Source: a bacterium (GTDB taxonomy: Bacteria; Patescibacteriota; Microgenomatia; UBA1400; UBA12108). Taken from it: a stretch of DNA of 62,682 nt. Both the position numbers and the translations under genes were made by a program. Positions within the stretch are counted from its first letter, which is position 1. Every line of letters begins with the position of its first letter. The stretch spans positions 1-62,682 of the forward strand of contig JAJYKS010000006.1 of assembly GCA_021788365.1 (NCBI GenBank). The letters are read 5' to 3'. The notes beneath the pieces are model-generated. The model ran no database searches, was not told where the DNA came from, and saw only the letters and a list, made by a program, of their open reading frames with translations. This document shows, in pieces, positions 1,653 to 54,968 of this stretch.

Positions 1653-1697
1653 ATGAAACTCGTAATCCGCATAACCACCACGACTACCATCCGCTAA
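1653..1697 (+). CDS. Thr-rich attenuator leader peptide MKLVIRITTTTTIR
   Basis: 14-codon ORF with five consecutive Thr codons (1674-1688), 7 nt after TATAAT, followed by mutually exclusive hairpins upstream of thrS. Confidence 0.9.
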   Translation: MKLVIRITTTTTIR

Positions 1698-1747
1698 CGC
1701 GGGGGAGTGTGTTGGATATGCTCACTCCCGCGCCACGCGGGAGTTTT
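1698..1747 (+). terminator. thrS attenuator: antiterminator/terminator pair
   Basis: Terminator ACTCCCGCG-cca-CGCGGGAGT-TTT (1724-1747); its 5' arm can alternatively pair with CGCGGGGGAGTG (1698-1709). Confidence 0.88.
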
Positions 1748-1781
1748 AGTATCTACCCATATACGCTAGAATAAGGAACAT

Positions 1782-3581
1782 ATGCAAAAACAAAAACAAG
1801 AAAGTCTAATACCAGATCTCCATCCGCTGCGCCACAGCGCGGAACACGTTCTCCACCAGGCGATGAAGGAACTCTATCCTTCGATACACCTGGCAATGGG
1901 CCCAGCAACAGACGAAGGCTTCTACTTTGACTTCGACGGCAAAGTCGATGGCAAGAGTGAGGTGGTTATCTCCGAGGCCGATTTCCCGAAAATCGAGAAA
2001 CGCATGGCAGAAATCATTAAAAAGGATCTCCCAATTACCAGATACGAAGTTTCTGAAAAAGAAGCTCGTAAACTCTTTGCCGACAACCCGTACAAACAGG
2101 AGTGGATCGACAAAGCCGTACAAGAGGGTAAAAACATCTCGATCTACTGGACCGGAGAACCAGAGAAACCGGGATCCATGGTGGACCTCTGCAAGGGCCC
2201 TCACGTCGAAAGCACGGGGAAGATAAAAGCGTTTAAGCTCCTCTCCGTGGCCGGTGCCTACTGGCACGGAGATGAGAAGAACAAAATGCTGACCCGTATC
2301 TATGGCACAGCCTTCTTCTCACAACAGGAGCTCGAGGAGCACTTGAAACGGCTAGAAGATGCCAAACTTCACGACCACCGTAAGCTTGGGCGTGATCTCA
2401 ACTTATTCGTTTTCTCCGATCTCGTTGGTAAAGGTCTTCCCATGCTCACGCCATACGGAACAACGATTCGTCGAGAGCTCGAACGATTTGTCGTCGACGA
2501 AGAGATACGACGTGGCTATCAGCACGTTATGACCCCGTCCCTCGCTAAGGTCGACCTCTACCGAACGAGTGGTCACTACCCATACTACAAAGACACTATG
2601 TATCCCCCAATGGTAGTCGACGAAGACGAGCTCATCTTGCGCCCGATGACCTGTCCGCATCACTTCCAGATGTACGTGAGCAGACCGAGGAGCTATCGGG
2701 AGCTTCCCATCCGCTACGCGGAGTTGGCAGACTTATTCCGATATGAGAAGAGTGGCGAGCTATCTGGGCTCATGCGTGTTCGCACGTTCTGCCTGGCAGA
2801 CGCCCACATTATCTGCACCAAGGAGCAAGCGGTGGGGGAGATAAACGCAGTTCTCGACCTCATCGAGTTCGTAAACAACACGCTCGGCATGAAAAAAGGT
2901 GTGGACTATCGCTATCGTCTCTCCTTGGGTGATCGCAGTGACACCAAAAAATATTACAAAGACGATTCCTCCTGGGATTACGCCGAAGGAGTACTACGAA
3001 GTGTCGTACAGTCGCGCGACGTTCCCTATTACGAAGCCGAAAACGAGGCCGCATTTTACGGCCCCAAAATCGATGTGCAGGTAAAAAATGTCGCCGGAAA
3101 AGAAGAGACTGCCTTTACCTGCCAATACGACTTCGTCATGCCTAAGCGCTTCAAGCTACGTTTTACCAATGCAGAAGGAGCAGAAGAAGAACCCATAGTG
3201 GTTCACCGGAGCAGCATCGGCGCATTCGAACGGACTATGGCATTTCTCATCGAGAAATACGCAGGGGCATTCCCGCTCTGGCTCTCGCCTGTACAGGTAA
3301 AGCTCGCCACTGTCTCAGAAAAAGAGCTGGGCGCTGCAGAAAAGGTAAAAACTGCTCTTAGTAGGGAAGGAATACGAGTGGAGCTCGATGATAGCAATCG
3401 TACGCTCGGGAAAAAGTCATCCGACGCACGAAGCGAAAAGGTTCCGTATTTTGCCATCGTAGGTGCAAAAGAGGCAGAGAACGGCACCGTCACGCTCAAG
3501 AATAGAGCGGGCGAACAGGTAGTACTCACCATAGACGAAGCAGTTGCCAAACTCAAGCAGGAAATAGTAAGCAAACAATAG
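1782..3581 (+). CDS. thrS: Threonyl-tRNA synthetase (lacks N-terminal TGS domain)
   Basis: HSAEH editing motif, DLCKGPHV, RPMTCPHH, AAFYGPKID, class II core and anticodon domain. Confidence 0.99.
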   Translation: MQKQKQESLIPDLHPLRHSAEHVLHQAMKELYPSIHLAMGPATDEGFYFDFDGKVDGKSEVVISEADFPKIEKRMAEIIKKDLPITRYEVSEKEARKLFADNPYKQEWIDKAVQEGKNISIYWTGEPEKPGSMVDLCKGPHVESTGKIKAFKLLSVAGAYWHGDEKNKMLTRIYGTAFFSQQELEEHLKRLEDAKLHDHRKLGRDLNLFVFSDLVGKGLPMLTPYGTTIRRELERFVVDEEIRRGYQHVMTPSLAKVDLYRTSGHYPYYKDTMYPPMVVDEDELILRPMTCPHHFQMYVSRPRSYRELPIRYAELADLFRYEKSGELSGLMRVRTFCLADAHIICTKEQAVGEINAVLDLIEFVNNTLGMKKGVDYRYRLSLGDRSDTKKYYKDDSSWDYAEGVLRSVVQSRDVPYYEAENEAAFYGPKIDVQVKNVAGKEETAFTCQYDFVMPKRFKLRFTNAEGAEEEPIVVHRSSIGAFERTMAFLIEKYAGAFPLWLSPVQVKLATVSEKELGAAEKVKTALSREGIRVELDDSNRTLGKKSSDARSEKVPYFAIVGAKEAENGTVTLKNRAGEQVVLTIDEAVAKLKQEIVSKQ

Positions 3582-3592
3582 TTACCAGATCA

Positions 3593-3626
3593 CATACCAG
3601 GTATGCAATATTGCATACCTGGTATG
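3593..3626. repeat. Perfect 34-bp palindrome
   Basis: CATACCAGGTATGCAAT/ATTGCATACCTGGTATG; a half-unit recurs at 61726-61749. Confidence 0.85.
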
Positions 3627-3670
3627 AAATTACATCACTAATAATCAAGAAATCCGCTATAATAAGCAAC

Positions 3671-4186
3671 ATGAAGTTTTACGCCATCAACCAATTTGTA
3701 AAAGGAACCGAGCTCCGTGTCGTGGACGAAACTGGCAAACAAATAGGCGTTATGAGCAAAACCGACGCCTTGGTTGAGGCCCAAAATCGCAATTTGGATC
3801 TAGTCGAAATCGCGCCTCTTGCCAAGCCTCCAGTTGCCAAGATTATAGATTTCAAGAAATTTAAGTATCTCGAGGCAAAAAAAGAGCGAGAGGGTCGCGC
3901 CAAAAGCGGCAAAGTAGAGCTTAAGGAAATCCGATTTACTCCATTTATTGCCACTGGTGATTTTGAGTCACGTGTAGGCCGCATGAAGGATATACTTGAG
4001 GATGGCGACCGAGTAAAGATTGTGGTAAAATTCACCGGTCGTCAAATCACGCACCCAGAGTTCGGACACGATCTTGTAAAAAAGATCCTGTCTTCACTTG
4101 AGGGAACAGCGGTTGCCGACGGAGTCGCAAAACTCCAAGGAAAGCAGTTGTTCTTGGTATTAAATCCGACCAAGAAGGCAAAATAA
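3671..4186 (+). CDS. infC: Translation initiation factor IF-3
   Basis: LRVVDETGKQIG, LDLVEIAP..PPVAKIIDFKKFKY, VELKEIRF; ATG 3671 is 7 nt after TATAAT. Confidence 0.97.
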   Translation: MKFYAINQFVKGTELRVVDETGKQIGVMSKTDALVEAQNRNLDLVEIAPLAKPPVAKIIDFKKFKYLEAKKEREGRAKSGKVELKEIRFTPFIATGDFESRVGRMKDILEDGDRVKIVVKFTGRQITHPEFGHDLVKKILSSLEGTAVADGVAKLQGKQLFLVLNPTKKAK

Positions 4187-4190
4187 ATCT

Positions 4191-4382
4191 ATGAAACGCA
4201 AAAGTAAGAAATCGCTGACAAAGCGAATCAAAGTGACAAAAAACGGTAAGATATTGCGTCGCACGCAGAACATGCGGCATCGCCGTTCACACAAGACTGC
4301 CGCCCAAGTCCGTCGTATGAAGGTAGTAAAAACCTTACACGGTCGCATTGCACGACGCGTAAAAAAGATTGTAGGAGCCTAG
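4191..4382 (+). CDS. rpmI: 50S ribosomal protein L35
   Basis: Basic 63 aa, KR.KVTKNGK..R, position in infC-rpmI-rplT. Confidence 0.93.
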   Translation: MKRKSKKSLTKRIKVTKNGKILRRTQNMRHRRSHKTAAQVRRMKVVKTLHGRIARRVKKIVGA

Positions 4383-4385
4383 AAT

Positions 4386-4739
4386 ATGACACGTGTTAAA
4401 AATAGCCCCACCAAACGTGCGCGCCACCACAAGGTGTTTGCACGAACCCGTGGGTTCCGCATGACCAAAAATCATCTGTGGAAAGTGGCACACGAAGCCT
4501 ACCTCCACGCCCTCGACTACTCCTTCCAAGGAAGGAAAGACCGCAAATCAGACATGAAATCACTCTGGATTGTGCGTCTCAATGCTGCACTTCGCGAGCT
4601 CGACCCCAAGTACACCTACAGTCGCTTTGTTGCCGATCTAAAAAAGAAAAACATCGTGCTCGATCGCAAGGTTTTGGCCGACGTCGCCGTTTCCGACACC
4701 CCAACTTTCAAGAAAATCGTCGAAGCAGCCTCAAAATAA
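4386..4739 (+). CDS. rplT: 50S ribosomal protein L20
   Basis: MTRVK, GRK.RK...KSLWIVRLNAA, YSRF..LKK.NI.LDRKVLAD. Confidence 0.98.
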   Translation: MTRVKNSPTKRARHHKVFARTRGFRMTKNHLWKVAHEAYLHALDYSFQGRKDRKSDMKSLWIVRLNAALRELDPKYTYSRFVADLKKKNIVLDRKVLADVAVSDTPTFKKIVEAASK

Positions 4740-4756
4740 TCCCATACATCGGGGTA

Positions 4757-4857
4757 TTGACAAAATTGCAGCCTGTAGTGTACTATGTGCGTCTTGCGAG
4801 AAGCAACCACTCCGGCAGCTATTGTATATATAGACTTGCCTACGAGAGGTTGCTTTT
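4757..4857 (+). ncRNA. Candidate small structured RNA (promoter followed by rod hairpin ending in U-run)
   Basis: TTGACA 4757-4762, 18 bp, TACTAT 4781-4786; hairpin AAGCAACC (4801-08)/GGTTGCTT (4848-55) with inner CTC/GAG, GGCA/TGCC, CTAT/ATAG; no ORF. Confidence 0.4.
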
Positions 4858-4875
4858 GGCGTATCTAGGGGTAAT

Positions 4876-4905
4876 TTGACAGGAAACAGTAACACGTAGT
4901 ATCCT
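4876..4905 (+). promoter_or_regulatory. Promoter of the pheST leader
   Basis: TTGACA 4876-4881, 18 bp, TATCCT 4900-4905, 8 nt before the leader ATG. Confidence 0.6.
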
Positions 4906-4913
4906 CTCCCCAC

Positions 4914-4958
4914 ATGAGTCACAAAGAAAATTTATTTTTCTTTTTTACCACCAGCTAA
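4914..4958 (+). CDS. Phe-rich attenuator leader peptide MSHKENLFFFFTTS (pheM-like)
   Basis: 14-codon ORF with four consecutive Phe codons (4935-4946) upstream of pheST attenuator hairpins. Confidence 0.9.
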   Translation: MSHKENLFFFFTTS

Positions 4959-4959
4959 A

Positions 4960-5006
4960 CGCGGGGAGGTAAACGTGCCTACCACCCCGCGGGAGCGGGG
5001 TTTTTT
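4960..5006 (+). terminator. pheST attenuator: antiterminator/terminator pair
   Basis: Terminator ACCCCGC-ggga-GCGGGGT-TTTTT (4984-5006); antiterminator GCGGGGAGGTA (4961-71)/TACCACCCCGC (4980-90); 1:2 pairing TTTACC (4944-49)/GGTAAA (4968-73). Confidence 0.88.
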
Positions 5007-5034
5007 GTGAGCACAAGATGTTACAATGAAACCT

Positions 5035-6039
5035 ATGCAAAACAAGATTGATACAATTAAAAATACCTTCATCGCAGACCTGGTTGCAGCAGCAACGCTC
5101 GAAGCTCTAGAAGCGATCCGAATAAAGTACCTCGGCAAATCGAAAGGGGAGACAACGCTTCTCCTCAAGGAATTACAATCGCTCTCACTCGACGATAAAA
5201 AGCACTATGGCCCCCTCCTCAACCAACTAAAGCACTATCAAGAGTCAGAACTAGAAAATAAATATAAAATACTAAATAGCGAAATAAAAAATGAAACAGA
5301 CCTCACTATTCCCGGCACTCCCCGTCCAGTCGGCCACCTACACCCCACCTCAGTTGTCATCCGAGAAATGAACGAATTCTTCCGCTACCACGGTTTCTCC
5401 ATAGGAGAAGGGCCTGAAATTGAAAATGCTGACTACAATTTCCGACGCTTAAATTTGCCGGAAGGGCATCCTGCGACAGATCTCCAGGACACACTCTTTA
5501 TCAAAGAGCCAGATATACTGCTGCGCACACACACCTCATCGGTAGAAACGCGCATACTTTCGGCGTACCACGACAAGCTACCCCTACGAGTCGTAGTCCC
5601 CGGCAAGTGCTACCGCAACGAGACAGGCAATGCCACCAACAATAGCTTCTTCTACCAATATCAAGGATTCGTTGTAGACAAGGGGATCACCATCCAGCAT
5701 CTAAAAGACGTCCTCACCAAATTCCACCAATTCTTGTTCGGCAAAGATGTAGTGCTACGCTTCCGCTACAAATACTACCCCGAGGTTTCTCCCGGTATGG
5801 GCGTCGACATGCAGTGCCAATTCTGCAAAGGGGTGGGGTGCGGCGTGTGTAAATATCGCGGCTATATCGAGGTTTTGGGGAGCGGCATGATCCACTACAA
5901 CACGCTTCTAGCTTGTGGTATCGATCCTGACATCTACACCGGTTTCGCCTGGGGCATGGGTTTAGACCGCCTCGTCATGAGTAAATTCGGTATCACTGAT
6001 ATTAGGAAACTTTATAGCGGAGATATCGTCTACCTATGA
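5035..6039 (+). CDS. pheS: Phenylalanyl-tRNA synthetase alpha subunit
   Basis: GHLHP, HPATDLQDT, LLRTHTSS, PGKCYRN, GFAWGMGLDRL; start 5035 (5026 alternative). Confidence 0.99.
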   Translation: MQNKIDTIKNTFIADLVAAATLEALEAIRIKYLGKSKGETTLLLKELQSLSLDDKKHYGPLLNQLKHYQESELENKYKILNSEIKNETDLTIPGTPRPVGHLHPTSVVIREMNEFFRYHGFSIGEGPEIENADYNFRRLNLPEGHPATDLQDTLFIKEPDILLRTHTSSVETRILSAYHDKLPLRVVVPGKCYRNETGNATNNSFFYQYQGFVVDKGITIQHLKDVLTKFHQFLFGKDVVLRFRYKYYPEVSPGMGVDMQCQFCKGVGCGVCKYRGYIEVLGSGMIHYNTLLACGIDPDIYTGFAWGMGLDRLVMSKFGITDIRKLYSGDIVYL

Positions 6040-7883
6040 AAATACCTATTACCTGGCTCAAAGACTACGTCGAAACCGATAAGAAACCGGCAGAAATTGC
6101 AAAAGTGTTCACGAGCCTCGGTCTCATGCTCGACAAGCCCATTGATGGTGATGTGCTAGATCTCGAGCATCGCATGGACCGTGCCGACTGGCTGAGCGTA
6201 ATAGGCTGTGCCCGCGACTTTGCAGCCTTTGAGGGATTAAAACTGCACGAGCAAAAAGTGTACGGCAAGCCCGGAAAATCAGTTGTTGCCAAAAAGCGCA
6301 TTACCATTACGGGTAAAACTACTGCCGCACATCGCTTCAACACGCGCGTATTCCGTGGCGTAAAAATCGGACCATCACCAAAGTGGCTCGTCGACCGTCT
6401 TGAAGCATACGGCATGGAGAGCAAAAATAACATCGTAGACATAACGAACTACACAATGGTGGAATACGGACAGCCGCTCCATGCACAAGACATTGCCAAG
6501 CTGCCGGCTCCCGAGATCACCTTACGCAAGGCGACTAGTGGAGAGACGATTACTACACTCCTTGGCACAACCGTGGTGCTTGATAGAGAAACAGATATTC
6601 TCGCTTCAGGAGGGAAGCCAGTCGTAATTATGGGGATAGTCGGTGGCGCAGAAACCGGAGTTACAGAGACTACCGTCGATATCCTCCTCGACGCCGGCAA
6701 TTACGACGCTCGAGTTATCCGCAAAACCTCCCGCCGCCTACGCATTATGAATGAAACCGTATCCAGATGCGACAAATTCCTCGACCCCAGGCTTACCGAG
6801 GTAGCACTCGCTCGTGCAACCGAACTCATCCTCGAAATTGCAGGTGGTACGTACTATGAAAACGAAGACTGGTATCCACACCCGAAGTTGCCACAATCGG
6901 AAGTACTGCACTTCGCACGCCTGGCACAGCTCAGCGGTATGGACATACCAATAGCACAAGTGAAAAGAACTCTCCGGGCACTTGAATATCAGATTATAGA
7001 AGAGAGTGACGACGCGCTCACCGTTGAAGTACCATATTTCCGCACCGACATCGAGGTGGAAGACGACCTCGTCGCAGACATACTCCGTATCGGTGACTAC
7101 ACCAATATTCCCGCCACTCCACTTGCCTCGCCTGTGCCCGTGGATATTACTTCAGCGCTGTATCGCTTCGAAGACCGGCTCCGCGATGTTTGCGCTGCCA
7201 TGGGTTGCGACGAGCATATCACCGACCCCTTAGTCAAAGCTACCGGCAGGGTAGGGGAAATCCACCTAGCTAACTCGTTGTCCGAAGATCAAAACGCACT
7301 GCGCACCTCGCTCGTCCCTGGACTCGTCCATGTGCAAAATACCTACAAAAAACACGGTATAGCGACGCCAGTATTCGAGCTCGGCTCCGTCTACGATGGA
7401 ACAGCTTCCACCCAAAGCGAAACACGGCAACTTACCGTTGTTGGTAGCGATCCGTCCGGTTACCTTGCAACTATTCTCTCCGCACTCGGGATAAAAAATT
7501 ATTCTCTCTCTTCACATGAGGCAGATCCTGTCCTTGTCTTAGTAAACCTCAAATTAGTCGGTACCATCAGTACCTCCTCATTTACTCTCAATACAGCGGC
7601 ACTCATCGAACATGTCTCTCCCTACCAAAGTCTCAAAACGGAAATCGCTCATGTACCGTCACTAGATATTTCGTTAACGCTGCCTACAGGTACTCACTTT
7701 GAGAAAGCAGCTAAAATTCTCGCAAAGTCCGCACCGAAGCCATCGTCCATTGCAGTTATCGAGCGCTATGAGAACTCGCTCCTTGTTCGTCTCACATGGG
7801 ACAAACAAATCGACGCGGACAAAGTCCGACTTTCATTGGTAAAAGCGCTGGAAGCAGCTGGTATCGCCACTCGATCGAAATAG
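6036..7883 (+). CDS. pheT: Phenylalanyl-tRNA synthetase beta subunit (short, no B2 OB domain)
   Basis: MKIPITWLKDYV, DRADWLS, NNIVDITNY.M.EYGQPLHA.D, PYFRTDI. Confidence 0.97.
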   Translation: MKIPITWLKDYVETDKKPAEIAKVFTSLGLMLDKPIDGDVLDLEHRMDRADWLSVIGCARDFAAFEGLKLHEQKVYGKPGKSVVAKKRITITGKTTAAHRFNTRVFRGVKIGPSPKWLVDRLEAYGMESKNNIVDITNYTMVEYGQPLHAQDIAKLPAPEITLRKATSGETITTLLGTTVVLDRETDILASGGKPVVIMGIVGGAETGVTETTVDILLDAGNYDARVIRKTSRRLRIMNETVSRCDKFLDPRLTEVALARATELILEIAGGTYYENEDWYPHPKLPQSEVLHFARLAQLSGMDIPIAQVKRTLRALEYQIIEESDDALTVEVPYFRTDIEVEDDLVADILRIGDYTNIPATPLASPVPVDITSALYRFEDRLRDVCAAMGCDEHITDPLVKATGRVGEIHLANSLSEDQNALRTSLVPGLVHVQNTYKKHGIATPVFELGSVYDGTASTQSETRQLTVVGSDPSGYLATILSALGIKNYSLSSHEADPVLVLVNLKLVGTISTSSFTLNTAALIEHVSPYQSLKTEIAHVPSLDISLTLPTGTHFEKAAKILAKSAPKPSSIAVIERYENSLLVRLTWDKQIDADKVRLSLVKALEAAGIATRSK

Positions 7884-7887
7884 GCCG

Positions 7888-10509: not shown

Positions 10510-10574
10510 ATAGCCGAGTATAGAGCAGGCTAGACCCGTAGACAACTCCCCCCAGGCTTTCTATAATGAACGGC

Positions 10575-11726
10575 ATGAATGATGACCTCTTAACCCGCCG
10601 TGTTGCCAAGATTCTCCCCTCAAAAGAGGGACTTGAAGCACTCATAAAATCGAAGAAAAAAATCAGGCTCTACCAGGGATTCGATCCCACCTTTTCTGCA
10701 CTTCACCTCGGTCATACCATCGGTTTTCGCAAGCTCATGGATTTTGCAAAAGCAGGGCATGAAGTTATATTTTTGTTCGGTACGGGAACAGTTTTGGCCG
10801 GTGACCCATCGGAAAGAGATACGGGACGTAAATTAATTACACAAGAAGAAATAGATGAAAATATTAAAACATGGAAAGAGCAAGTCAGCAAAATTGTAGA
10901 CTTTGATCTGGTAAAGATCAGGCAAAACGGCGACTGGCTCACCAAGCTAACACTCAAGGACATAATAAACATCGCCAGCAACATTAGCGCCGTACAGCTA
11001 TTCAAGCGAGAAATGTTTACACGCCGCATAGCTCATGGAGACACTGTCTGGTATCACGAAACCATGTACCCACTTCTCCAGGGGTACGACTCGGTCGCAA
11101 TGGACGTAGACCTCGAAGTTGGCGGCACTGACCAAGAATTTAACATGCTCATCGGCCGTGAGCTGCAGCACAAAATGAATAATCATGAAAAATTTGTATT
11201 AACAACACCGATGATCAACGGCACGGATGGGAAGAAAATGAGTAAATCGGTGGGAAACTGTATATTTTTGACAGAACCACCAGAGGATGTGTATCGCAAG
11301 ATCATGGCGATGCACGACGAAATGATTCCCACGTACTATGAACTTTTAACCGACATACCTATGGATGAAATTGCAGCCTTAGATCCCAGTAAGCCTGTTG
11401 AAAACAAAAAACGACTTGCGTACGACATCACCCGACAGCTACATGGGGTAGAAGGCGCTCAAACAGCCGCAAAATTCTATGACTCATATGTTCAAACAAA
11501 ATTAGCCCCAGAAGATTCACCAGAAGTTATCCTAAAATCGGGCACTCCACTCCTCGAAGCGCTGAAAAACGCAGACCTTGGGGTAAGTAATAGTGACATT
11601 AAGCGAACACTCGAGCAGGGCGGGGTAGAATTAGACGGGGTCAGGCTTTCCGATCCTGTATCAGAAATAAAGGCCGGCACCCTCAAATTTGGCAAGCGCA
11701 CATTCAGAAAAATTGTGGTTAAATAA
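10575..11726 (+). CDS. tyrS: Tyrosyl-tRNA synthetase
   Basis: GFDPT..LHLGH, YPLLQGYD, GGTDQEFN, KKMSKS, C-terminal S4 domain. Confidence 0.99.
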   Translation: MNDDLLTRRVAKILPSKEGLEALIKSKKKIRLYQGFDPTFSALHLGHTIGFRKLMDFAKAGHEVIFLFGTGTVLAGDPSERDTGRKLITQEEIDENIKTWKEQVSKIVDFDLVKIRQNGDWLTKLTLKDIINIASNISAVQLFKREMFTRRIAHGDTVWYHETMYPLLQGYDSVAMDVDLEVGGTDQEFNMLIGRELQHKMNNHEKFVLTTPMINGTDGKKMSKSVGNCIFLTEPPEDVYRKIMAMHDEMIPTYYELLTDIPMDEIAALDPSKPVENKKRLAYDITRQLHGVEGAQTAAKFYDSYVQTKLAPEDSPEVILKSGTPLLEALKNADLGVSNSDIKRTLEQGGVELDGVRLSDPVSEIKAGTLKFGKRTFRKIVVK

Positions 11727-11733
11727 AGACACT

Positions 11734-22372: not shown

Positions 22373-23170
22373 TTACATCCCGTATATCCGAAGAAGTGAA
22401 CCACCCCATACGAGGGCAATTATCGCCCCAGCAACAAGGAATGGTCCAAATGGCAGGGTATCGGTCCGTTTACGTATACCGGCTACCAAAAGACCTACAC
22501 CGACACTTGCTCCAACAATAAAGGATGCAAGAAAAGCAACGATTACCCTGGGCCACCCAACAACCAGAGCCACGAGAAACATAAGATACGGGTCACCATC
22601 ACCCATGCCCCGACCGTGCGTCACCCAGCGAAGCAGCTGAATAAAAAACGCCGAAACAATCGCTCCAACAAGTGCCGCTACAAAATCATTGAGGTGATAT
22701 CCACCCAAAAACAGAAGCACGATGCGGTACAAGAGTACCCATGCAACACTGACCCACAAGACTGGCATGAGTATGACGCCATATGCCCAATCAGCAATAG
22801 CCAACACTAAGAGAAGTACGCCAATACCAAGCCAAAACAGAGGCTGTATATACGTAAGCGGTTGAACAGCTAGCTGAAAAAAGAAAGTCCCCATAACCGC
22901 CCACCATATAAAAAGACTCCCAAGGATAAATTCCACAATCGGATAGCGCGCAGATAAGCGCTTGTGGCAACAACGACTTCTCCCTCGATAGAATAGGTAG
23001 CTTACGATCGGTACCATGTCATACCACGTGAGCGTTTTTTTACAATGATCACACCGCGACCGGCCCCCCACCCAATCAGTACCCTGTATTGTCCGATCGA
23101 TGAGCACATTAACAAAACTGCCAACCGATGCTCCCAAGAAAAAAATAATGACAAACAATAGCCAAGTCAT
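22373..23170 (-). CDS. pilD: Prepilin peptidase
   Basis: GSFVNV, RSRCDHC, MGDGD, LPFGPFL; ATG 23170 is 6 nt after TACAAT. Confidence 0.95.
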   Translation of the reverse strand: MTWLLFVIIFFLGASVGSFVNVLIDRTIQGTDWVGGRSRCDHCKKTLTWYDMVPIVSYLFYRGRSRCCHKRLSARYPIVEFILGSLFIWWAVMGTFFFQLAVQPLTYIQPLFWLGIGVLLLVLAIADWAYGVILMPVLWVSVAWVLLYRIVLLFLGGYHLNDFVAALVGAIVSAFFIQLLRWVTHGRGMGDGDPYLMFLVALVVGWPRVIVAFLASFIVGASVGVGLLVAGIRKRTDTLPFGPFLVAGAIIALVWGGSLLRIYGM

Positions 23171-45448: not shown

Positions 45449-45471
45449 ACCTTCATTTTACATCAATCTCT

Positions 45472-45587
45472 ATCCGGAAGTCATATTTACAAAGAAAAAT
45501 ATTGCGCAGGATTGATCCGAGCACAAGATCGCTGCGACACCAGTCGCAGATAGATCGGTTTTTCACTTGGAAATATGACTTCCGGAT
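45472..45587. repeat. Structured dispersed element, copy 1 (terminal inverted repeats, three-way junction)
   Basis: 21-bp TIR (20/21 match); 103-nt core 95/103 identical to 51116-51218. Confidence 0.9.
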
Positions 45588-45640
45588 TTCTGCAATCCCA
45601 TTGACAACTCACCCCTTACTCTCGATAATAATGCGAATAC

Positions 45641-46240
45641 ATGCGCGAACTACAAGAACAAGCCATCCGTGCCGCCTTAGGGGGCAATTGGGAACTCGCC
45701 ATCGAACTAAACGCCGAAATTTTAGCAGAGAATCCCGATGACATCCCCGCTCTCAATCGACTAGCAAGAGCGTATACGGAAATGGGACAAAAAGACGAAG
45801 CTAAGGTTATGTATCAACGGGTTCTTACCCTCGACAAATACAATCCCATTGCCACAAAAAATCTCAAAGTCCTTCCCCACCAAAAAAACGGGACTACACC
45901 TCAGGTGACCACTGATGAAGATTTTATTGAACAACCCGGTCTCACCAAAGCCGTAAGTTTGATAAAAGTCGCGAGCCGTGAAACACTACTCTGCCTGTCC
46001 TGTAAACAAAAGGTGACGTTTGCACCCCGCTCACGCCTAATCTCGGTAACAACCGACGACAAAGTCTACCTTGGCTCCCTCCCAGACGACCTCTCGCTCA
46101 AACTGACTAAATGCATAAAACGAGGTTATGCCTATGCGGCATGTGTAAAAAATACCACTGACAGCGCCATTTCTATTTTTATCCGTGAGACAAAGCGGCC
46201 TCAACGTGCTGGCTACGCGCCTTCATTTATCACTCGCTAA
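45641..46240 (+). CDS. TPR-repeat protein
   Basis: A..GNWELA..N..IL...P.DI.ALNRLARAY; TTGACA-17-GATAAT upstream. Confidence 0.85.
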   Translation: MRELQEQAIRAALGGNWELAIELNAEILAENPDDIPALNRLARAYTEMGQKDEAKVMYQRVLTLDKYNPIATKNLKVLPHQKNGTTPQVTTDEDFIEQPGLTKAVSLIKVASRETLLCLSCKQKVTFAPRSRLISVTTDDKVYLGSLPDDLSLKLTKCIKRGYAYAACVKNTTDSAISIFIRETKRPQRAGYAPSFITR

Positions 46241-47190: not shown

Positions 47191-47237
47191 CCTTCCATGC
47201 TACCACGTAGAGAGCGTATGGCGTACAATGAGTGGCC

Positions 47238-48371: not shown

Positions 48372-49119
48372 GAAAATATTTTTGTACGTGAGCCAAAAGG
48401 TCTTGCCGCGTCTCCCACTTTATTCGCTCATGGGTCACGGGGTGCACGAGCTCGAGTGATTGTGCCGACAGCATGACGCGTGTGGCCCATTTTCTATCTT
48501 CCCTGCTCCGCTTTCTCCCGGCGTACAGGTTATCGCCAACCAAGGGGTGTCCCACGTGCTGCGCATGTACTCGTATCTGGTGAGTCCGCCCCGTCTTTGG
48601 ACGAAACGTAACCAATGAAAATCCACCATACCCTCGGTCATCCACGTGAAGCTCTCGGGGAAACTGCCAGGTCTTCCAGAATTCCTGTACAGTGTACGCC
48701 GTCGTACTCTCCCGACCGTCTTCACGCACGCCGTAGCGCGTACGATTGTGATGCATACGTCCCAACGGGAGCGTTATCTCGCCTTCCGGCGCCTTCCACA
48801 CGCCGTGGGTGAGAGCCAGATAGGTCTTGGTGACTTCCCGCTCCTTAAACTGCCGCAGAAGCTCCACAAACGCTTGTGGCGTCTTGGAGAGTATCATCAC
48901 CCCGCTCGTTTCCTTATCCAGCCTATGCACTAGTCCACTCCGCTCCTGGAAATAGGTACCCTCCTCACTCATAAATCGTAAATCTTGAATCTTGTATCTT
49001 GTATCCATCCAATCCTGCACCGTCTCCGTCTTTACCGTCTCGGCACGGTTCACCACCACCCCGCTCGGCTTGTCTATAACAACAATATCGTCGTCTTCAA
49101 ATAAAATCGGAATCTCCAT
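48361..49119 (-). CDS. RluA/RluD-family pseudouridine synthase
   Basis: VIDKPSG, GLVHRLDKETSG, TGRTHQIRVH, GHPLVGD. Confidence 0.95.
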   Translation of the reverse strand: MEIPILFEDDDIVVIDKPSGVVVNRAETVKTETVQDWMDTRYKIQDLRFMSEEGTYFQERSGLVHRLDKETSGVMILSKTPQAFVELLRQFKEREVTKTYLALTHGVWKAPEGEITLPLGRMHHNRTRYGVREDGRESTTAYTVQEFWKTWQFPRELHVDDRGYGGFSLVTFRPKTGRTHQIRVHAQHVGHPLVGDNLYAGRKRSREDRKWATRVMLSAQSLELVHPVTHERIKWETRQDLLAHVQKYFPTE

Positions 49120-49137
49120 AGTATGTGGAATTGTACC

Positions 49138-49428
49138 TCATATATGGAAAACGAGGCTTGCCAAAGCATACCAGACAACTCCGCCGAAAATAAGGTAATC
49201 GGCGAAGTTATTATAAAAGAGTCCAAAGAAATTCCACGGATCAGCCACCGCTCCCCCTGTAATGCGGCTCCACAAATTTACGGCTCCACCAACAAAAATA
49301 AGCACAAGTGGTCCCCGGCGAGTTTTTTCTTTTACAAAAAGATACAGAACGACAAACTCTGCCAAAACAATTACCGCAAGTGGTACGGGAATACCACCAC
49401 TCACCCCAACATTGAGGATGCCGGTCAT
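49138..49428 (-). CDS. lspA: Minimal lipoprotein signal peptidase II-like protein
   Basis: LNVGVSGG, GGAVNL..R, V.D, N.AD; ATG 49428 overlaps the upstream stop. Confidence 0.6.
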   Translation of the reverse strand: MTGILNVGVSGGIPVPLAVIVLAEFVVLYLFVKEKTRRGPLVLIFVGGAVNLWSRITGGAVADPWNFFGLFYNNFADYLIFGGVVWYALASLVFHI

Positions 49429-49781
49429 TTTGCCTTTTTGGCACAGCTCATGCAAAGCTCCGCCGTGGGGTCCACTCCCAGACGGTCGGTATCGATCATA
49501 GCGCCGCACTTTGTGCACTTACCATAGGTACCATCATCAACTCGTTTCATGGCTGCCCGTATGCGCGTAAGTGCCGCTTCTGTTTCTTTCGACATTGCTT
49601 GGGATTGTTCGTGGCCAAACTGCTCCGTTGCCTCGACGTCATCGCTACGCTGCGAAGTAAAGCGAGACGCGTCACTATACGGATCCTCACCGTCCAAAGC
49701 GCGTTTGCGGTGCAAAAGATCATCCTCTGCTTTCTTGAGGTAGTCCCACACCGACTGTAATATATTCCTTGGATACTGCAT
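49425..49781 (-). CDS. TraR/DksA C4-type zinc-finger protein
   Basis: YGKCTKCG..I...RL...P.AELCMSC. Confidence 0.92.
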   Translation of the reverse strand: MQYPRNILQSVWDYLKKAEDDLLHRKRALDGEDPYSDASRFTSQRSDDVEATEQFGHEQSQAMSKETEAALTRIRAAMKRVDDGTYGKCTKCGAMIDTDRLGVDPTAELCMSCAKKAK

Positions 49782-49796
49782 GCTTCCTCCCTTTCT

Positions 49797-50597
49797 CTAT
49801 GTGTGTTTCCATTGTAACAAACCATTGGTAATGCGCCCACTCCCACCGCGCTGCAAAAGAATCCCCACAATGGCAATAATGATAAGACCAACACCAATAA
49901 TGCTCATCAAGGGAACAGGTCCCAGGCGCACGGTCTGAACTGTAATCCACCCCATAACGCCGTAAAAAAGCCCCGAAAAAGCCACAAATACGAGCGCCGC
50001 AAGTCCATCTTTAGCAACCGTCGACTCTCTCCGATACCACGCATAAAACCGAAAATTTTTACGCACGGCAAAGACGATCACGTAGGCAAGAATTGCCCAC
50101 ACGACGCTCCACACATCTGCCGGAAACCGCCGCACGGCGTCCACCTGAGTAACAATACCCCATCGCCAAGGAATACCAACACTCATGCCTGAAAGAAGTG
50201 CCCCGATAGCCCCAAAGACCAGCACCATTGTAAGTGCAACCGCCGCCCCGTCCCACGTCTTCCGTACTTCCCACCCCTGCTGATGGGAAAAGAAACCAAG
50301 AAACACGGTAGCGCCACCAATCCCTAGTGGATAAGACAGCCCGGGATACGACAGTACACCAATCGCCCGCCACCACACATGCATATCGGCCCAATTGAGA
50401 GCAATATACCCAATGCGGCCGACAACAAAAAATACTAGTAGGGAGAGGAAAAAGGCGTCAAACAACGAGATCTCCTCCCAATGCTCGTCACGACCCAACT
50501 TCCACCAAGTGTACAGTCCAAAAAGCAAACCAAAAAAGAGGCAAACTCCAAATGAATAAATTGTTAGCGGTCCCACATGTAACAAAACTGGTAACAT
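49797..50597 (-). CDS. lgt: Lgt-like membrane protein (signature motifs divergent)
   Basis: MLPVLLHVGPLTIYSFG N-terminus, GLS..G, GIPW..G; gene context with dksA-lspA-rluA. Confidence 0.65.
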   Translation of the reverse strand: MLPVLLHVGPLTIYSFGVCLFFGLLFGLYTWWKLGRDEHWEEISLFDAFFLSLLVFFVVGRIGYIALNWADMHVWWRAIGVLSYPGLSYPLGIGGATVFLGFFSHQQGWEVRKTWDGAAVALTMVLVFGAIGALLSGMSVGIPWRWGIVTQVDAVRRFPADVWSVVWAILAYVIVFAVRKNFRFYAWYRRESTVAKDGLAALVFVAFSGLFYGVMGWITVQTVRLGPVPLMSIIGVGLIIIAIVGILLQRGGSGRITNGLLQWKHT

Positions 50598-50648
50598 AGT
50601 CCCTCCACAGGCTTTACACTATACACTATTCACTTTACACTATTCCCT

Positions 50649-51113
50649 ATGCTTTCCATTTCCCACGCCGCAACCGGCGCTTTTATTGCAGTAAAGATTG
50701 GCAACCCACTCCTCGCGGTCCCGCTCATCCTCGCTTCGCACTACGTTGAAGATGCCGTTCCTCATTGGGACGCTGGTACTGGTTTATCCAAAGGCAAGAA
50801 GACACCAAAGGCAGCCTTCCGCGACGAAATTATAGACATTATCGTAGCCGGCATCATAGTTCTTATTCTGTTCCCCGTTCATATATCGTTAACTTCACCG
50901 CTTACCGCCCTACTCGCTGCCCCAGTCTGGGGAGCATTCTTTGGACTCCTCCCCGATTTTCTCGAAGCTCCCCGTAACTTCCTCAAATACGAGCCTCGCT
51001 GGCTCCGCCCTATAAACAAATTCCATGGCCGATTTCACCACTCGATCCCCAATGTTTGGGCCGGCCTCGCCCCCCAAGTACTCCTCCTCAGTCTCATCTG
51101 GGCGTTTCGGTAG
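50649..51113 (+). CDS. Putative membrane-bound metal-dependent hydrolase (YdjM-like)
   Basis: SHAATG, SHYVED..PHWD, LPDF, H..FHH. Confidence 0.6.
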   Translation: MLSISHAATGAFIAVKIGNPLLAVPLILASHYVEDAVPHWDAGTGLSKGKKTPKAAFRDEIIDIIVAGIIVLILFPVHISLTSPLTALLAAPVWGAFFGLLPDFLEAPRNFLKYEPRWLRPINKFHGRFHHSIPNVWAGLAPQVLLLSLIWAFR

Positions 51114-51226
51114 ACGAAGTCATATTTACAAAGCAAAATATTGCGCAGGATTGTTCCGAGCACAAGATCGCTGCGCGACCACGCGCAGACAGATCGGTTT
51201 TGCACTTGGAAATATGACGAGTCTAC
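51110..51226. repeat. Structured dispersed element, copy 2
   Basis: Same core as 45477-45579; outer stem GTAGAC/GTCTAC replaces ATCCG/CGGAT. Confidence 0.9.
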
Positions 51227-51264
51227 CTAGAGAGAAGCATAAAACTAACGTATAATACCCCTGC

Positions 51265-51349
51265 GCCTAGGTGGCGGAATTGGTATACGCGCAGGTCTCA
51301 AAAACCTGTGGTCTCAACAACCTTGAGGGTCCGAGTCCCTCCCTAGGCA
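51265..51349 (+). tRNA. tRNA-Leu(CAA)
   Basis: Acceptor GCCTAGG/CCTAGGC, D arm GCG..CGC, anticodon stem CAGGT/ACCTG with CAA at 51299-51301, long variable arm, T stem GAGGG/CCCTC; CCA not encoded. Confidence 0.93.
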
Positions 51350-51351
51350 CA

Positions 51352-52665
51352 CTATCCCCTCGCGCGGTCTACGCCATAAAATCGTACGCGATCCCCACGG
51401 AATCGAAGGTCTATGGTGCGCAGAGCGCCATTACGATGTTTGGCTATATTGAGCTTCACATTTTCAAGATCCTCAGCATCCTCGCGATACAAGAACATGA
51501 CAACGTCCGCATCCTGCTCGATGCTACCCGACTCACGGAGGTCCGCCAGTTGTGGCGTACTCCCACTCCCACGGTGTTCGATCGCACGCGACAATTGCGA
51601 CAAAGCCAGAACCGGTATCTTTAGTTCGCGAGCCAAATTCTTCAAACCCTGCGATATCTCTGCCACTTCCTGCACGCGGTTTTCCAAATTGCGACCACGC
51701 ATAAGCTGGAGATAGTCCACTACAATAAGCCCTATCTCATGTTCTGATTTGAGGCGGCGAGCTTTGGTACGCATCTCAAGAACTGAAAGTCCTGGTGTGT
51801 CATCGATGTAAAGCGGTGCCTCGGCGAGAACGCCCATAGCATCCGAGAGCTTGCCAAAGTCTTCACTCGACAATTTTCCGGTTTTGAGACGCCATGCATC
51901 AATGTCTGCCTGTGATACTAGGAGGCGATCCACGAGCTCTTCTTTGCTCATTTCTAGCGCAAAAAATCCAACCCCTACCTTTGACACAGCACTTGCGTAT
52001 TGGGCTATGTTCAGGGCAAACGCTGTTTTCCCCATACCAGGACGCGCGGCGAGGATTATCAAGTTCGAGTCTTGCATCCCCGCGAGACAGTTGTCCAGAT
52101 CAGTAAATCCGGTTGCAACACCCCGCAAAGATCCAGATTTCTTCGACAGCTCATCGAGTCGATCAAAACTCTCCGCAAGTATCGATCGTAAGGGCGTAAA
52201 TCCTTGCTTCATCTGCTGCTGCGAAAGCCCAAACACCTTCTGCTCCGCGCTATCCAAAATGGTGCCAATTTCCGCCCCCTCATCAAACGACAATTCGATC
52301 ATGGCCGAACTATCGGCAATGAGTTTACGCCTGGTGTAATAGTCTCGAATGATCTCACCGTAATGCTTTATGTTTGCGGAACTGGGGACGCCCTCAGCGA
52401 GCGACGAAATGTATGACACGCCGCCGACTTTCTCGAGCAACTTCATTGTTTTTAATTTCTGGGGGAGTGTAACCAAGTCGATCGGCTCGCGACTCTCAAA
52501 AAGCGAGATCATGGCTCGATAGATATCACCATGACGATCCTGGTAAAAAAACTCAGGTAAGAGAAATTCAGATACCTGAACTATTGCGTCCTTATCGATG
52601 AGAATAGATCCAAGTACCGATACTTCTGCCTCATCACTATGCGGGGGGACTTTGTTTCCTGCCAT
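51352..52665 (-). CDS. dnaB: Replicative DNA helicase DnaB
   Basis: PPHS.EAE.SVLG, AARPGMGKT, VDYLQL, SQLSR, DLRESGSIEQDAD. Confidence 0.99.
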   Translation of the reverse strand: MAGNKVPPHSDEAEVSVLGSILIDKDAIVQVSEFLLPEFFYQDRHGDIYRAMISLFESREPIDLVTLPQKLKTMKLLEKVGGVSYISSLAEGVPSSANIKHYGEIIRDYYTRRKLIADSSAMIELSFDEGAEIGTILDSAEQKVFGLSQQQMKQGFTPLRSILAESFDRLDELSKKSGSLRGVATGFTDLDNCLAGMQDSNLIILAARPGMGKTAFALNIAQYASAVSKVGVGFFALEMSKEELVDRLLVSQADIDAWRLKTGKLSSEDFGKLSDAMGVLAEAPLYIDDTPGLSVLEMRTKARRLKSEHEIGLIVVDYLQLMRGRNLENRVQEVAEISQGLKNLARELKIPVLALSQLSRAIEHRGSGSTPQLADLRESGSIEQDADVVMFLYREDAEDLENVKLNIAKHRNGALRTIDLRFRGDRVRFYGVDRARG

Positions 52666-52731
52666 GCTCACATTTTACCGGAAAAACAGCACACCCAAAA
52701 CCGTGTACTATCTACCCGTACTATATACAAA

Positions 52732-53388
52732 TTACTCAAAGAGAATCACTTCAGTACTATCCGCGGGCAGGGATTGGGCGGTAATGGAGAGAGTCTTCAC
52801 GGTTCTCGATCCATGGCCATACGCTGCAACAAAGGTTTCAACACCCCCCACCTCGCCAAATGTCTTCTCGTCGTGGCGATCCGTACGATAGTGCATAGGC
52901 AACACATAGGTTGGCTCAATTTGCGCGGCAACGTCACCGGCCTGTTTTGCATCGATTGTATAAAACCCTCCCACCGGCACCATGAGGACGTCAACAGTGT
53001 CAAGCTCGTCCACAAGTTTTTCAGATAAGGGGTGCCCCAAATCACCAAGGTGTAACACCCGTAGGCCTTCGGCTTGCACAACATAAATAGTATTTGCCCC
53101 CCGCTCCGCACCTTCCTTAGCATCGTGATACGTCGGATAGCCAAATACCGATATACCCTCCACTTCATACTCCCCCGGCTCTTGGATCACAAACGGCTGG
53201 GGACGACGCGCAGTGCCAGACACCGCAGCAGCGTTATTATGATCCGAATGCTGGTGGGACAAGGTAACAATATCGGCAGAAACAGTCGGCATCTTAAGAG
53301 ATCCTATATTGCCATACGGATCCATAACCACCACACCTGTTTTTGTCTTTACGCGAAAACACGAGTGTCCGAGATAGCTAATTTCCAT
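52732..53388 (-). CDS. Metallo-beta-lactamase-fold hydrolase
   Basis: YLGHSCF, SHQHSDH, HLGDLGH, PMHY. Confidence 0.93.
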   Translation of the reverse strand: MEISYLGHSCFRVKTKTGVVVMDPYGNIGSLKMPTVSADIVTLSHQHSDHNNAAAVSGTARRPQPFVIQEPGEYEVEGISVFGYPTYHDAKEGAERGANTIYVVQAEGLRVLHLGDLGHPLSEKLVDELDTVDVLMVPVGGFYTIDAKQAGDVAAQIEPTYVLPMHYRTDRHDEKTFGEVGGVETFVAAYGHGSRTVKTLSITAQSLPADSTEVILFE

Positions 53389-53593
53389 ATTCCCTATATT
53401 ACCACACCGAGTTCACCCGACAGCGAAGTCGTATTAAAAAATAAATAAGGCACACACGAGCAGAGCAATTTTCAGCGCGGAACGTCGAACTGGTCCCTCC
53501 AGTAAGCTGTGAGCACTGCAAAATTGTGTCGCGAGTATGTACAACAACAACAAAGTCTTTACGATTCCCCCCTCTTGCGCTACACTCGCTCTA

Positions 53594-54031
53594 ATGAAAG
53601 TCCGCAAAGAAGCCACTGTAGCAGTCATTATAGGTCTCGTATTGGGACTTATTGTCGTCGGCGGGGTTGTGCGAGCTCGCCAAGCATTACAACAAATGCA
53701 AAAAGAAAATAGTGAAGCCTCTTCAGTTGGCCAAAGTGGTCCTACCCCTTTGGGAGCACCATCCGGCCTCTTCCTCACGATAGAGACTCCCGACAACTCC
53801 GTGTCAAAAGACGCTGCGCTTACGGTAAGTGGAAAGACGCTCGCCGGTACATATGTTGCCATTACCGGTGAAAAGGGCGAATATCTTATAGTGCCAAACA
53901 GTCTTGGTTCATTTAGTCAGGACGTGACGCTCGCTGGAGGCGCCAACACCATTACGATAACCGTCTACCAGGCAGACGGCACTCACGTTGCCAAAACACT
54001 TAATGCGGTATACACAACCGCGGGGTTGTGA
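53594..54031 (+). CDS. Membrane-anchored Ig-like domain protein
   Basis: TM helix, then TVSGKT...FS.DVTL..GANTITIT; ATG 7 nt after TACACT. Confidence 0.75.
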   Translation: MKVRKEATVAVIIGLVLGLIVVGGVVRARQALQQMQKENSEASSVGQSGPTPLGAPSGLFLTIETPDNSVSKDAALTVSGKTLAGTYVAITGEKGEYLIVPNSLGSFSQDVTLAGGANTITITVYQADGTHVAKTLNAVYTTAGL

Positions 54032-54049
54032 TACAGTCTATCCCTGTCT

Positions 54050-54790
54050 ATGAAGAAAAAAGCACTATTTGCCGCCACTATTGCACTTACTGTTGTAATA
54101 CTGGCTCCGATTCCTGTCTCATTCGCAGCTTCCCCGACGCCTACACCCGATGCCACAGCAAGCAACAGCGCCACCATTAACGAAATTACCGATAACCTCA
54201 AACAACGTTTGCAAGAGACAATACAAAACGCCAGTAGCTCAGCAACGGCGACGGCTGTTGCCTACATTGGTTCGGTAAAGGATGTCGTAAACGACACAAT
54301 CGTCATGGACACCAAAGACGGCCGCAAGAACATCGCAGTTGGCAGCGATACCACAATCGTCCGTACCCCGGGACAACGCACAATAAAGATAGATAACGTC
54401 CAAATCGGCGACTCGGCGATCGCGATCGGCACACCAAGTGCAGAGGATGAGCTCGCCGGTACCCGAATTGTAGTGAGCACCGACCCCATCACCCCCCCTG
54501 CCAAAACCAGCGGCTATGGCACCATAACCAAAATAGCACGTGGCTCGTTGTCATTATTTGTTCCTGGCCAATCCGACCCTGTCGTAGTAGGAGTAGATGG
54601 GAACACGATTATAAAAACGCCATCAGATCTCCTTACTCTCAAAGACCTTGCGCTCGGCGATACCATCGTCTACACCGCCGATCTAGATAAAAATAACAAC
54701 CAGACAGCAACTATAATCATGCAAATCTCAACAGCTTCTCCCACTCCCTCCCCAGAGACCTCAGCCTCGCCTGCTGCCAAGAAAAAATAA
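54050..54790 (+). CDS. Secreted protein with repeated beta-rich (DUF5666-like) domains
   Basis: Signal peptide, PT linker, two G.V..V...T.I.......L.VGD.V-type units. Confidence 0.7.
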   Translation: MKKKALFAATIALTVVILAPIPVSFAASPTPTPDATASNSATINEITDNLKQRLQETIQNASSSATATAVAYIGSVKDVVNDTIVMDTKDGRKNIAVGSDTTIVRTPGQRTIKIDNVQIGDSAIAIGTPSAEDELAGTRIVVSTDPITPPAKTSGYGTITKIARGSLSLFVPGQSDPVVVGVDGNTIIKTPSDLLTLKDLALGDTIVYTADLDKNNNQTATIIMQISTASPTPSPETSASPAAKKK

Positions 54791-54793
54791 AAT

Positions 54794-54821
54794 TTGACAA
54801 GCCGTCACAATTTGCTATTAT
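54794..54821 (+). promoter_or_regulatory. Promoter of the hisS-operon leader
   Basis: TTGACA 54794-99, 16 bp, TGc-TATTAT 54816-21, 8 nt before ATG 54830. Confidence 0.7.
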
Positions 54822-54829
54822 CCACCTCA

Positions 54830-54919
54830 ATGAACACCTACACTCTAGCCACTGTAGCCCTGAGCTTGTCGAAGGGTCATAGCTCCCACACATTTGTGGC
54901 GGGAGCGCTTTTCGCGTAA
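54830..54919 (+). CDS. Candidate attenuator leader peptide (29 aa, His codons at 54878 and 54887)
   Basis: MNTYTLATVALSLSKGHSSHTFVAGALFA; its 3' part GTGGCGGG is complementary to the terminator 5' arm. Confidence 0.6.
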   Translation: MNTYTLATVALSLSKGHSSHTFVAGALFA

Positions 54920-54968
54920 AAAAGAAATAATTAGTTTCTTCCCATACCCCGCCACCAGGCGGGTTTTT
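54896..54968 (+). terminator. Attenuator-type antiterminator/terminator
   Basis: Terminator CCCGCC-acca-GGCGGG-TTTTT (54948-68); GTGGCGGG (54896-903) pairs perfectly with CCCGCCAC (54948-55). Confidence 0.8.

Follow-up and report, generated by a model that had tools for sequence, protein, structure and literature searches.

The stretch of DNA analysed here is a 62,682-nucleotide contig (contig C23, hereafter the window) from a bacterium of the candidate phyla radiation (CPR, Patescibacteria). It carries three short leader regions, ahead of thrS, of pheST and of an operon that contains hisS. We interpret them, with a probability of about 0.85, as classical ribosome-mediated attenuators, each of which would sense the charging of one transfer RNA (tRNA) and set the transcription of the matching aminoacyl-tRNA synthetase operon. 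Judging from sequence, at least five synthetase loci of the genome (Thr, Phe, His, Leu and Cys) are most likely under stalled-ribosome attenuators of this kind. Most CPR bacteria have never been grown in culture; they carry hardly any recognisable regulators and rely on amino acids taken up from outside. The source genome comprises 1.085 Mb in 26 contigs, is 94.8% complete and has a G+C content of about 49%. A first-pass annotation of the window had called it CPR-like, and this was borne out: the nearest ThrRS loci in named records come from metagenome-assembled genomes of the Microgenomates group and other Patescibacteria, with Roizman-, Beckwith-, Gottesman- and Woesebacteria among them.

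Leaders of thrS, pheST and the his operon

The first-pass annotation had proposed one design for the thrS, pheST and hisS operon loci, and the same design was recovered in our analysis: a -10 box, 7-8 nt of spacer, the AUG of a short upstream open reading frame (uORF) with cognate codons and, behind it, overlapping antiterminator and terminator stems. In the thrS leader, the following elements were identified:

1640-1645, + strand: -10 box TATAAT, 7 nt ahead of the uORF ATG, a spacing that falls in the genome-wide leaderless peak of 6-7 nt
1653-1697, + strand: thrS leader open reading frame (ORF) MKLVIRITTTTTIR, 14 codons, with five consecutive Thr codons at 1674-1688
1698-1732, + strand: antiterminator, 5' arm CGCGGGGGAGTG (1698-1709) pairing with CACTCCCGCG (1723-1732)
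1724-1747, + strand: intrinsic terminator, stem 1724-1744 followed by a T-run (-18.8 kcal/mol, z -4.3)

The 5' arm of the antiterminator begins directly past the uORF stop codon, and its 3' arm overlaps the 5' arm of the terminator. The 5' half of the antiterminator also pairs with the Thr-codon segment (1669-1694), forming a 1:2 helix. In the fold of the whole leader (-42 kcal/mol, z = -4.8), region 2 is taken up by the Thr-codon segment and the terminator is present; in this folding model the layout is that of the four-segment trp type.

Conservation was examined gene by gene in 30 genomes of the same order. The uORF criterion was strict for Thr and Phe (at least four cognate residues in a 6-residue window) and looser for Cys (at least three in six). 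uORFs rich in Thr precede thrS in 14 of the 30 genomes, compared with none on the antisense strand and three at most for other amino acids. In a wider set of 77 more distant Patescibacteria and Chloroflexi loci, eight Thr-run uORFs were found, against 0.7 in shuffled sequences. Alignment of the Thr antiterminators with MAFFT and RNAalifold gave no consensus; the sequences are too divergent to align, and per-sequence ribosome-masking folds with shuffled controls were therefore used instead (see below). As a separate observation, the Thr leader peptides of the same family (relatives L003, L004, L006, L012, L019 and L020) end in x-Pro-stop (NP*, HP*, CP*, YP*), where the Pro codon, the stop codon and the next GGG make a small CCC-GUAA-GGG hairpin; the constraint may therefore act on the RNA and not on the peptide.

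The pheST leader is organized in the same way:

4876-4905, + strand: Phe leader promoter, TTGACA (4876-4881), 18 nt, TATCCT (4900-4905), then 8 nt to the ATG at 4914
4914-4958, + strand: pheST leader ORF MSHKENLFFFFTTS, with four Phe codons at 4935-4946
4960-4991, + strand: antiterminator, arms 4960-4971 and 4980-4991 (z -3.3)
4984-5006, + strand: terminator and T-run, stem 4984-5001

When folded, the antiterminator sequesters all 6 nt of the 5' arm of the terminator. Phe-run uORFs precede pheS in five of the 30 same-order genomes at the strict threshold, and in about nine by a looser criterion.

The third leader lies before the operon whose fourth gene is hisS:

54794-54821, + strand: his leader promoter, TTGACA (54794-54799), 16 nt, TATTAT (54816-54821), then 8 nt to the ATG
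54830-54919, + strand: his-operon leader ORF MNTYTLATVALSLSKGHSSHTFVAGALFA, 29 codons, with His codons at 54878-54880 and 54887-54889
54883-54889, + strand: region 1, CTCCCAC, which contains a His codon and pairs with region 2
54896-54905, + strand: region 2, GTGGCGGGAG
54948-54955, + strand: region 3, CCCGCCAC, which pairs with region 2 and makes up the 5' arm and part of the loop of the terminator
54948-54968, + strand: terminator, stem 54948-54963 followed by a T-run

Within region 2, GTGGCGGG (54896-54903) is perfectly complementary to region 3. Folded from region 2 onward, the leader formed the antiterminator, with an 8-bp 2:3 helix, at -25.6 kcal/mol, and the free leader RNA folded as the 1:2 helix plus the terminator. 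An apparent lack of an antiterminator in this leader came from a folded segment that began too near the stop codon, and was overturned by the fold from region 2 onward.

Orthologous his leaders head the same operon in eight further members of the family. Six of these leaders are intact and share the peptide ...HH(S/T)xH-T-x-VAG-xxF(A/G), with three to four His codons. HHH-type leaders were also found directly before hisS in four genomes of other families. In an alignment of nine His leaders, both alternative structures were about 90-92% paired, compared with 37-52% when the register was slid, and compensatory changes occurred, most of them in the two hairpins that the 2:3 helix encloses and in the basal pairs of the terminator. 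In the window, the repeat CTGAGCTTGTCGAAGG (54860-54875) is inserted in the leader ORF just upstream of the His codons and leaves H-S-S-H; the insert CCTGAGCTTGTCGAAGG is present in 21 copies in the genome. Two relatives have acquired independently a different insert (SPACNSCAIALRAG) at the same spot, and have kept the regulatory core. The cognate codons reported in the first-pass annotation are thus clear for Thr (five) and Phe (four), and weak for His (two) in the window, where the claim was rescued only by the orthologues. Given the conserved His peptide of these orthologues and the H-S-S-H that the insertion has left, comparison of the sequences indicates that the weak case in the window does belong to a conserved His leader family, in slightly altered form.

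Other synthetase loci of the genome

ORFs and terminators were called on all contigs, and only terminators located in 5' intergenic regions were retained, which left 35 terminator loci. Five synthetase loci have such a 5' terminator (thrS, pheS, leuS, cysS and the his operon), and at all five the uORF is enriched in its cognate residue. Two of the five leaders lie outside the window:

contig C7: leuS leader, TATCAT, 6 nt, ATG; ORF MTFSRGLSLLLLTT with five Leu, before an 882-aa LeuRS (Pfam)
contig C14: cysS leader, TATTAT, 6 nt, ATG; ORF MLENVCCCPCEDGGECTC with six Cys, before a 469-aa CysRS (Pfam)

Clear Leu leaders precede leuS in four of the 30 same-order genomes. Cys uORFs (consensus CCCPC..GGEC.C) were found in 15 of the 30, compared with three on the antisense strand, a count that takes in uORFs ahead of cysS as well as those separated from it by a small gene.

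The tyrS gene had been singled out as lacking such a leader, and this holds, as its 5' region consists of a -10 box, a short spacer and a start codon:

10562-10575, + strand: tyrS start, -10 box TATAAT (10562-10567), 7 nt, ATG at 10575

Neither a uORF nor a terminator was found in the tyrS 5' region, and tyrS was taken as the negative case. The longest-ORF start of tyrS (10566) overlaps the -10 box, and the real start is therefore probably 10575. The other synthetase genes were located by phmmer, NCBIfam and Pfam searches of the whole genome, in which IleRS was not found. Like tyrS, alaS, valS and metS are simply leaderless (TATAAT, TACAAT or TATACT, 7 nt, ATG); lysS, which follows a promoter of its own, has a short 5' leader that lacks a uORF; three more genes, proS, trpS and hisS, are located inside operons. 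The region upstream of argS is masked by N.

Two further synthetase genes appear to have leaders of another type: sub-threshold matches to the T-box model, each with a AGUAGGGUGGAACCGCG core, were obtained for the leaders of glyS (C12, 21265-21444; E 0.003) and serS (C20, 95918-96150, minus strand; E 0.02). Reduced T-boxes therefore seem, from these matches, to coexist with leader-peptide attenuators in one CPR genome. The asp/asnRS leader (C20, 206253-206367, minus strand) shares the motif GGTAAGCCCGTAATAGCAGG with the serS leader.

Switching model, leaderless starts and alternative explanations

In the mechanism that we propose, transcription would start about 7 nt after the -10 box, so that the AUG of the uORF would be at or next to the 5' end and a ribosome would load without a Shine-Dalgarno sequence. 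When the cognate charged tRNA is plentiful, this ribosome would reach the stop codon and cover region 2, the 5' arm of the antiterminator, which begins at the stop codon or immediately behind it and, for Cys and His, within the 3' end of the ORF. With region 2 covered, the terminator (3:4) would form and RNA polymerase would stop before the synthetase gene. When charged tRNA is scarce, a stall on the Thr, Phe, His, Leu or Cys codons would allow the 2:3 pairing and read-through. Untranslated RNA would fold as 1:2 plus 3:4 and terminate. The alternative pairings themselves are present in the sequence; termination in vivo and the response to starvation are predicted from them.

The ribosome was modelled in 46 leaders as a mask on the RNA that reached 13 nt beyond the A-site codon, with spacer shuffles as control. 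A ribosome placed at the first cognate codon abolished the terminator in the minimum-energy fold of 28 of 41 leaders, compared with 3.5 expected under spacer shuffling; placed at the stop codon, it left the terminator intact in every leader that could be evaluated. The thr, phe and cys leaders of this genome switched as predicted. For the leuS and window his leaders, we infer switching from co-transcriptional order and conservation.

Genome-wide, the distance from TAnnnT to the start codon peaked at 6-7 nt (118 + 79 = 197 cases at these positions, versus about 14 per position elsewhere). Because this peak is sharp, leaderless mRNAs appear to be the organism's normal way to express first genes. 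A TAnnnT hexamer is present 4-10 nt upstream of 36 of the 46 leader ORFs, several others have CATAAT there, and a Shine-Dalgarno-like motif precedes only two of the 46. These figures support, without proving, translation of the uORFs from 5'-terminal AUGs. The leaderless design suggested earlier thus agrees with the genome-wide signature in its spacing, and the transcription starts are predicted from that spacing, 6-8 nt, and from the absence of a Shine-Dalgarno sequence. It is reasonable to think that leaderless initiation would couple the first ribosome to RNA polymerase at once.

HisG and enzymes of the PALP family (ThrC, CysK, TrpB and related) were not found in the genome; both were found in 14 of 14 control genomes. 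If they act as proposed, the attenuators therefore cannot report biosynthesis, and must read tRNA charging with imported amino acids. The idea that the organism senses supplied amino acids was part of the first-pass annotation; the auxotrophy fits it, and the sensing function would follow from the mechanism proposed above.

Compared with the definition of a classical attenuator, each of the five loci has a uORF on the same strand, downstream of a promoter and upstream of the gene, an enrichment in cognate codons (five Thr, four Phe, five Leu, six Cys, and only two His in the window), an intrinsic terminator between the uORF and the structural gene, and a mutually exclusive antiterminator, although the leuS and window his leaders keep the terminator at equilibrium. 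The leaders do not belong to known sequence families: the Rfam leader models (Thr_, His_, Phe_, Leu_ and Trp_leader) had no gathering-score match in the window, the thr, phe, leu and cys leaders had no Rfam match at E<=1, and the only match of the his leader was a weak one to Trp_leader (19 bits versus a 41-bit cut-off, E 0.2), with none to His_leader. The window leaders would work like known attenuators without being members of their sequence families.

Several observations weigh against attenuation at these loci. In the equilibrium masking model, the terminator is kept in the leuS leader, whose antiterminator is only 6 bp, and in the window his leader. The two His codons of the window his uORF are not significant alone. 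The thrS leader is missing in 16 of the 30 same-order relatives, and the other leaders are likewise often missing; control by attenuation is therefore dispensable. No Shine-Dalgarno sequence that would serve translation of read-through transcripts is visible before pheS. Finally, -10-like hexamers lie between each terminator and its synthetase gene, 7-9 nt before the ATG: TAGAAT before thrS (1767-1772), TACAAT before pheS (5022-5027, with 7 nt to the ATG at 5035), and TAAAAT at both leuS and cysS. They may serve as additional, constitutive promoters through which essential genes keep a basal level of expression, and constitutive promoters downstream of the terminators could blunt the effect of an attenuator.

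Four other explanations were considered. Short ORFs and terminator-like hairpins are common (a simple scan detected 24 terminator-like sites in 12 kb, versus 12 expected), and the window His codons have no statistical weight of their own, so that the leaders could be no more than the usual promoters and terminators of adjacent genes, which by chance enclose short ORFs without meaning. This reading is hardly credible, since the residue run matches the downstream synthetase at all five loci and recurs in relatives, with no antisense Thr case, and since antiterminators are found far in excess of the shuffled controls. It is equally hard to accept that the codon runs are incidental and that the leaders are tRNA-sensing (T-box) or protein-bound attenuators. 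The T-box-like leaders of glyS and serS indicate that tRNA-sensing leaders probably exist in this genome, but the T-box model (RF00230) matched none of the window leaders and, elsewhere, only these two, weakly; the window leaders are 90-140 nt long, without a Stem I or T-box sequence, and the codon run is the feature conserved across divergent sequences.

An action of the short ORF mainly on translation of the synthetase, by reinitiation or coupling, or through Rho-dependent polarity and not via the intrinsic terminator, is very improbable. Reinitiation after leader peptides is put forward as a general role of leader genes in one study (PMC4833913), and no more than 67-84 nt separate the uORF stop codons from the starts of thrS and pheS. 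Every leader has nevertheless a strong G+C-rich hairpin, a T-run and an overlapping alternative helix, none of which translational coupling would need, and thrS, cysS and hisS have their own Shine-Dalgarno sequences. The last alternative concerns the his element (54794-54968), which might be an independent small RNA or small-protein gene under its own promoter and terminator, a decayed, repeat-disrupted leader that no longer regulates the operon. The loss of His codons to two, the insertion of a 21-copy repeat and the persistence of the terminator in the equilibrium stall model would fit such a decay. It remains unlikely: the core (H-x-x-H, region 1, GTGGCGGG in region 2, region 3 and the terminator) matches that of the orthologues exactly or almost exactly, the antiterminator forms when the RNA is folded from region 2 onward, and the two genomes with a different insert at the same place keep this core. 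Ribosome-mediated attenuation is therefore retained as the probable explanation for the three window leaders.

Comparison with known systems and other features of the window

The E. coli pheST operon is controlled by the Phe-rich pheM leader. The pheST leader of the window resembles it in its Phe-rich leader peptide, in the antiterminator and terminator directly before pheST, and in the gene neighbourhood (thrS-infC-rplT-leader-pheS-pheT). It differs in its CPR host, in an ORF that is apparently leaderless, without a Shine-Dalgarno sequence, and in having no detectable similarity to Rfam leaders. Leaderless polycysteine uORF attenuators have reportedly been described in mycobacteria by Canestrari et al. 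in 2020. Like the cysS leader, these are leaderless, Cys-rich short ORFs that sense cysteine supply, but they control cysteine biosynthesis and have no obvious terminators, whereas here a terminator and cysS follow. As in the T-boxes of Firmicutes synthetase genes, low charging of the cognate tRNA would lead to antitermination of the synthetase gene; the sensor here would be the translating ribosome instead of direct tRNA binding.

Other systems are documented in published work. A 2005 study predicted classical attenuators ahead of leuS and trpS in Streptomyces; it also cites the gamma-proteobacterial pheST attenuator and Cys leader peptides before cys operons (PMC1262725). RNA-seq of S. lividans identified leaderless leader peptides before alaS, thrS, trpS and leuS (PMC8079986), and in bacilli, both hisS paralogues and hisZ have His leader peptides ahead of them (PMC2965389). 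Streptomyces and the genome studied here have in common short leaderless cognate-codon ORFs, followed by hairpins, upstream of several synthetase genes. They belong to different phyla, and here the runs are cleaner (five Thr, versus two Thr in S. lividans thrL), a canonical U-tract terminator is always present and the set is Thr, Phe, His, Leu and Cys. The his leader of the window has, like the bacilli hisS/hisZ leaders and the enterobacterial his leader, a His-codon uORF and a terminator, and would control a hisS-family gene; unlike them, it heads an operon made of a small ORF and genes for an M20 deacylase, a GNAT-like protein, hisS and an EamA transporter, and the family has only two to four His codons.

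Full-text searches of a limited literature collection retrieved nothing relevant on attenuation or leader peptides in Patescibacteria or CPR. The novelty for CPR that had been suggested is consistent with this, although the mechanism, including leaderless synthetase leader peptides, was already described in Streptomyces. The present leaders add several new families, and a new phylum, to a textbook mechanism; the gain is therefore one of distribution and physiology and not of principle. Specialists in attenuation will find little surprise here; five synthetase operons with conserved stalled-ribosome switches in a 1.1-Mb genome would still provide a concrete, testable regulatory layer and a useful handle on CPR regulation. 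They would imply that coupled transcription-translation and efficient leaderless initiation operate in the lineage, and their signature, a cognate-codon uORF plus a terminator, could be used to annotate intergenic regions in thousands of metagenome-assembled genomes.

We lean, with some reserve, towards a wider interpretation, in which auxotrophs of the Microgenomates type run a lineage-wide regulon of leaderless attenuators (at least Thr, Phe, His, Leu and Cys here) together with reduced Gly and Ser T-box-like leaders, the His attenuator also governing candidate scavenging genes. Such a regulon would be their main, as yet undescribed, route to read host or environmental amino-acid supply, and would amount to direct evidence of tight transcription-translation coupling in CPR. 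The scavenging role of the M20 deacylase, GNAT-like protein and EamA transporter of the His-controlled operon is speculation.

The genes that these leaders precede, and their neighbours, are as follows:

1782-3581, + strand: thrS (Pfam), followed by infC (3611-4186) and rplT (4386-4739)
5026 or 5035 to 6039, + strand: pheS (Pfam)
6036-7883, + strand: pheT (Pfam)
10566 or 10575 to 11726, + strand: tyrS
54990-59125, + strand: operon behind the his leader, with a 63-aa ORF, an ArgE/DapE-type M20 deacylase, a GNAT-like protein, hisS and an EamA transporter
56947-58194, + strand: hisS, fourth gene of this operon, far downstream of the other synthetase genes of the window

An additional element lies between rplT and the Phe leader (4757-4870). 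It has a promoter (TTGACA 4757-4762, 18 nt, TACTAT 4781-4786) followed by a long hairpin, GCGAGAAGCAACC...GGTTGCTTTTGGC (about 4803-4866, -31 kcal/mol), for which an Rfam search gave no match. The hairpin is found in five genomes of the same family, with a conserved outer stem and a covarying inner hairpin; in three of these five, an element of this type directly precedes a leaderless pheS without a Phe leader. In genome L064, from another family, the same outer stem encloses a Phe-codon uORF. The element may represent a small RNA, the terminator of rplT or the relic of a leader.

Copies of the repeat found in the his leader, (C)CTGAGCTTGTCGAAGG, 16-17 nt, occur in coding and intergenic DNA, for example inside leuS (C7, 11005 and 11638) and proS (C20, 202312), and read SLSKG or LRQAQD in proteins. 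On contig C14 (69100-69331), TATAAT, 9 nt and ATG precede a leaderless uORF, MRDESSSLFFCNEIMPYYGRLAVVFVDEGGPR, and two tandem terminators; the 362-aa protein encoded behind it had no Pfam match, and the element may, from its layout, be another attenuator. An intergenic element of about 70 nt (...TTTTGCAGTGCTCACAGCTTACTGG...CCAGTTCGACGCTCCGCGCTGAAAA...) is repeated upstream of unrelated genes on C10 (about 22700-22830) and C14 (about 58720-58810).

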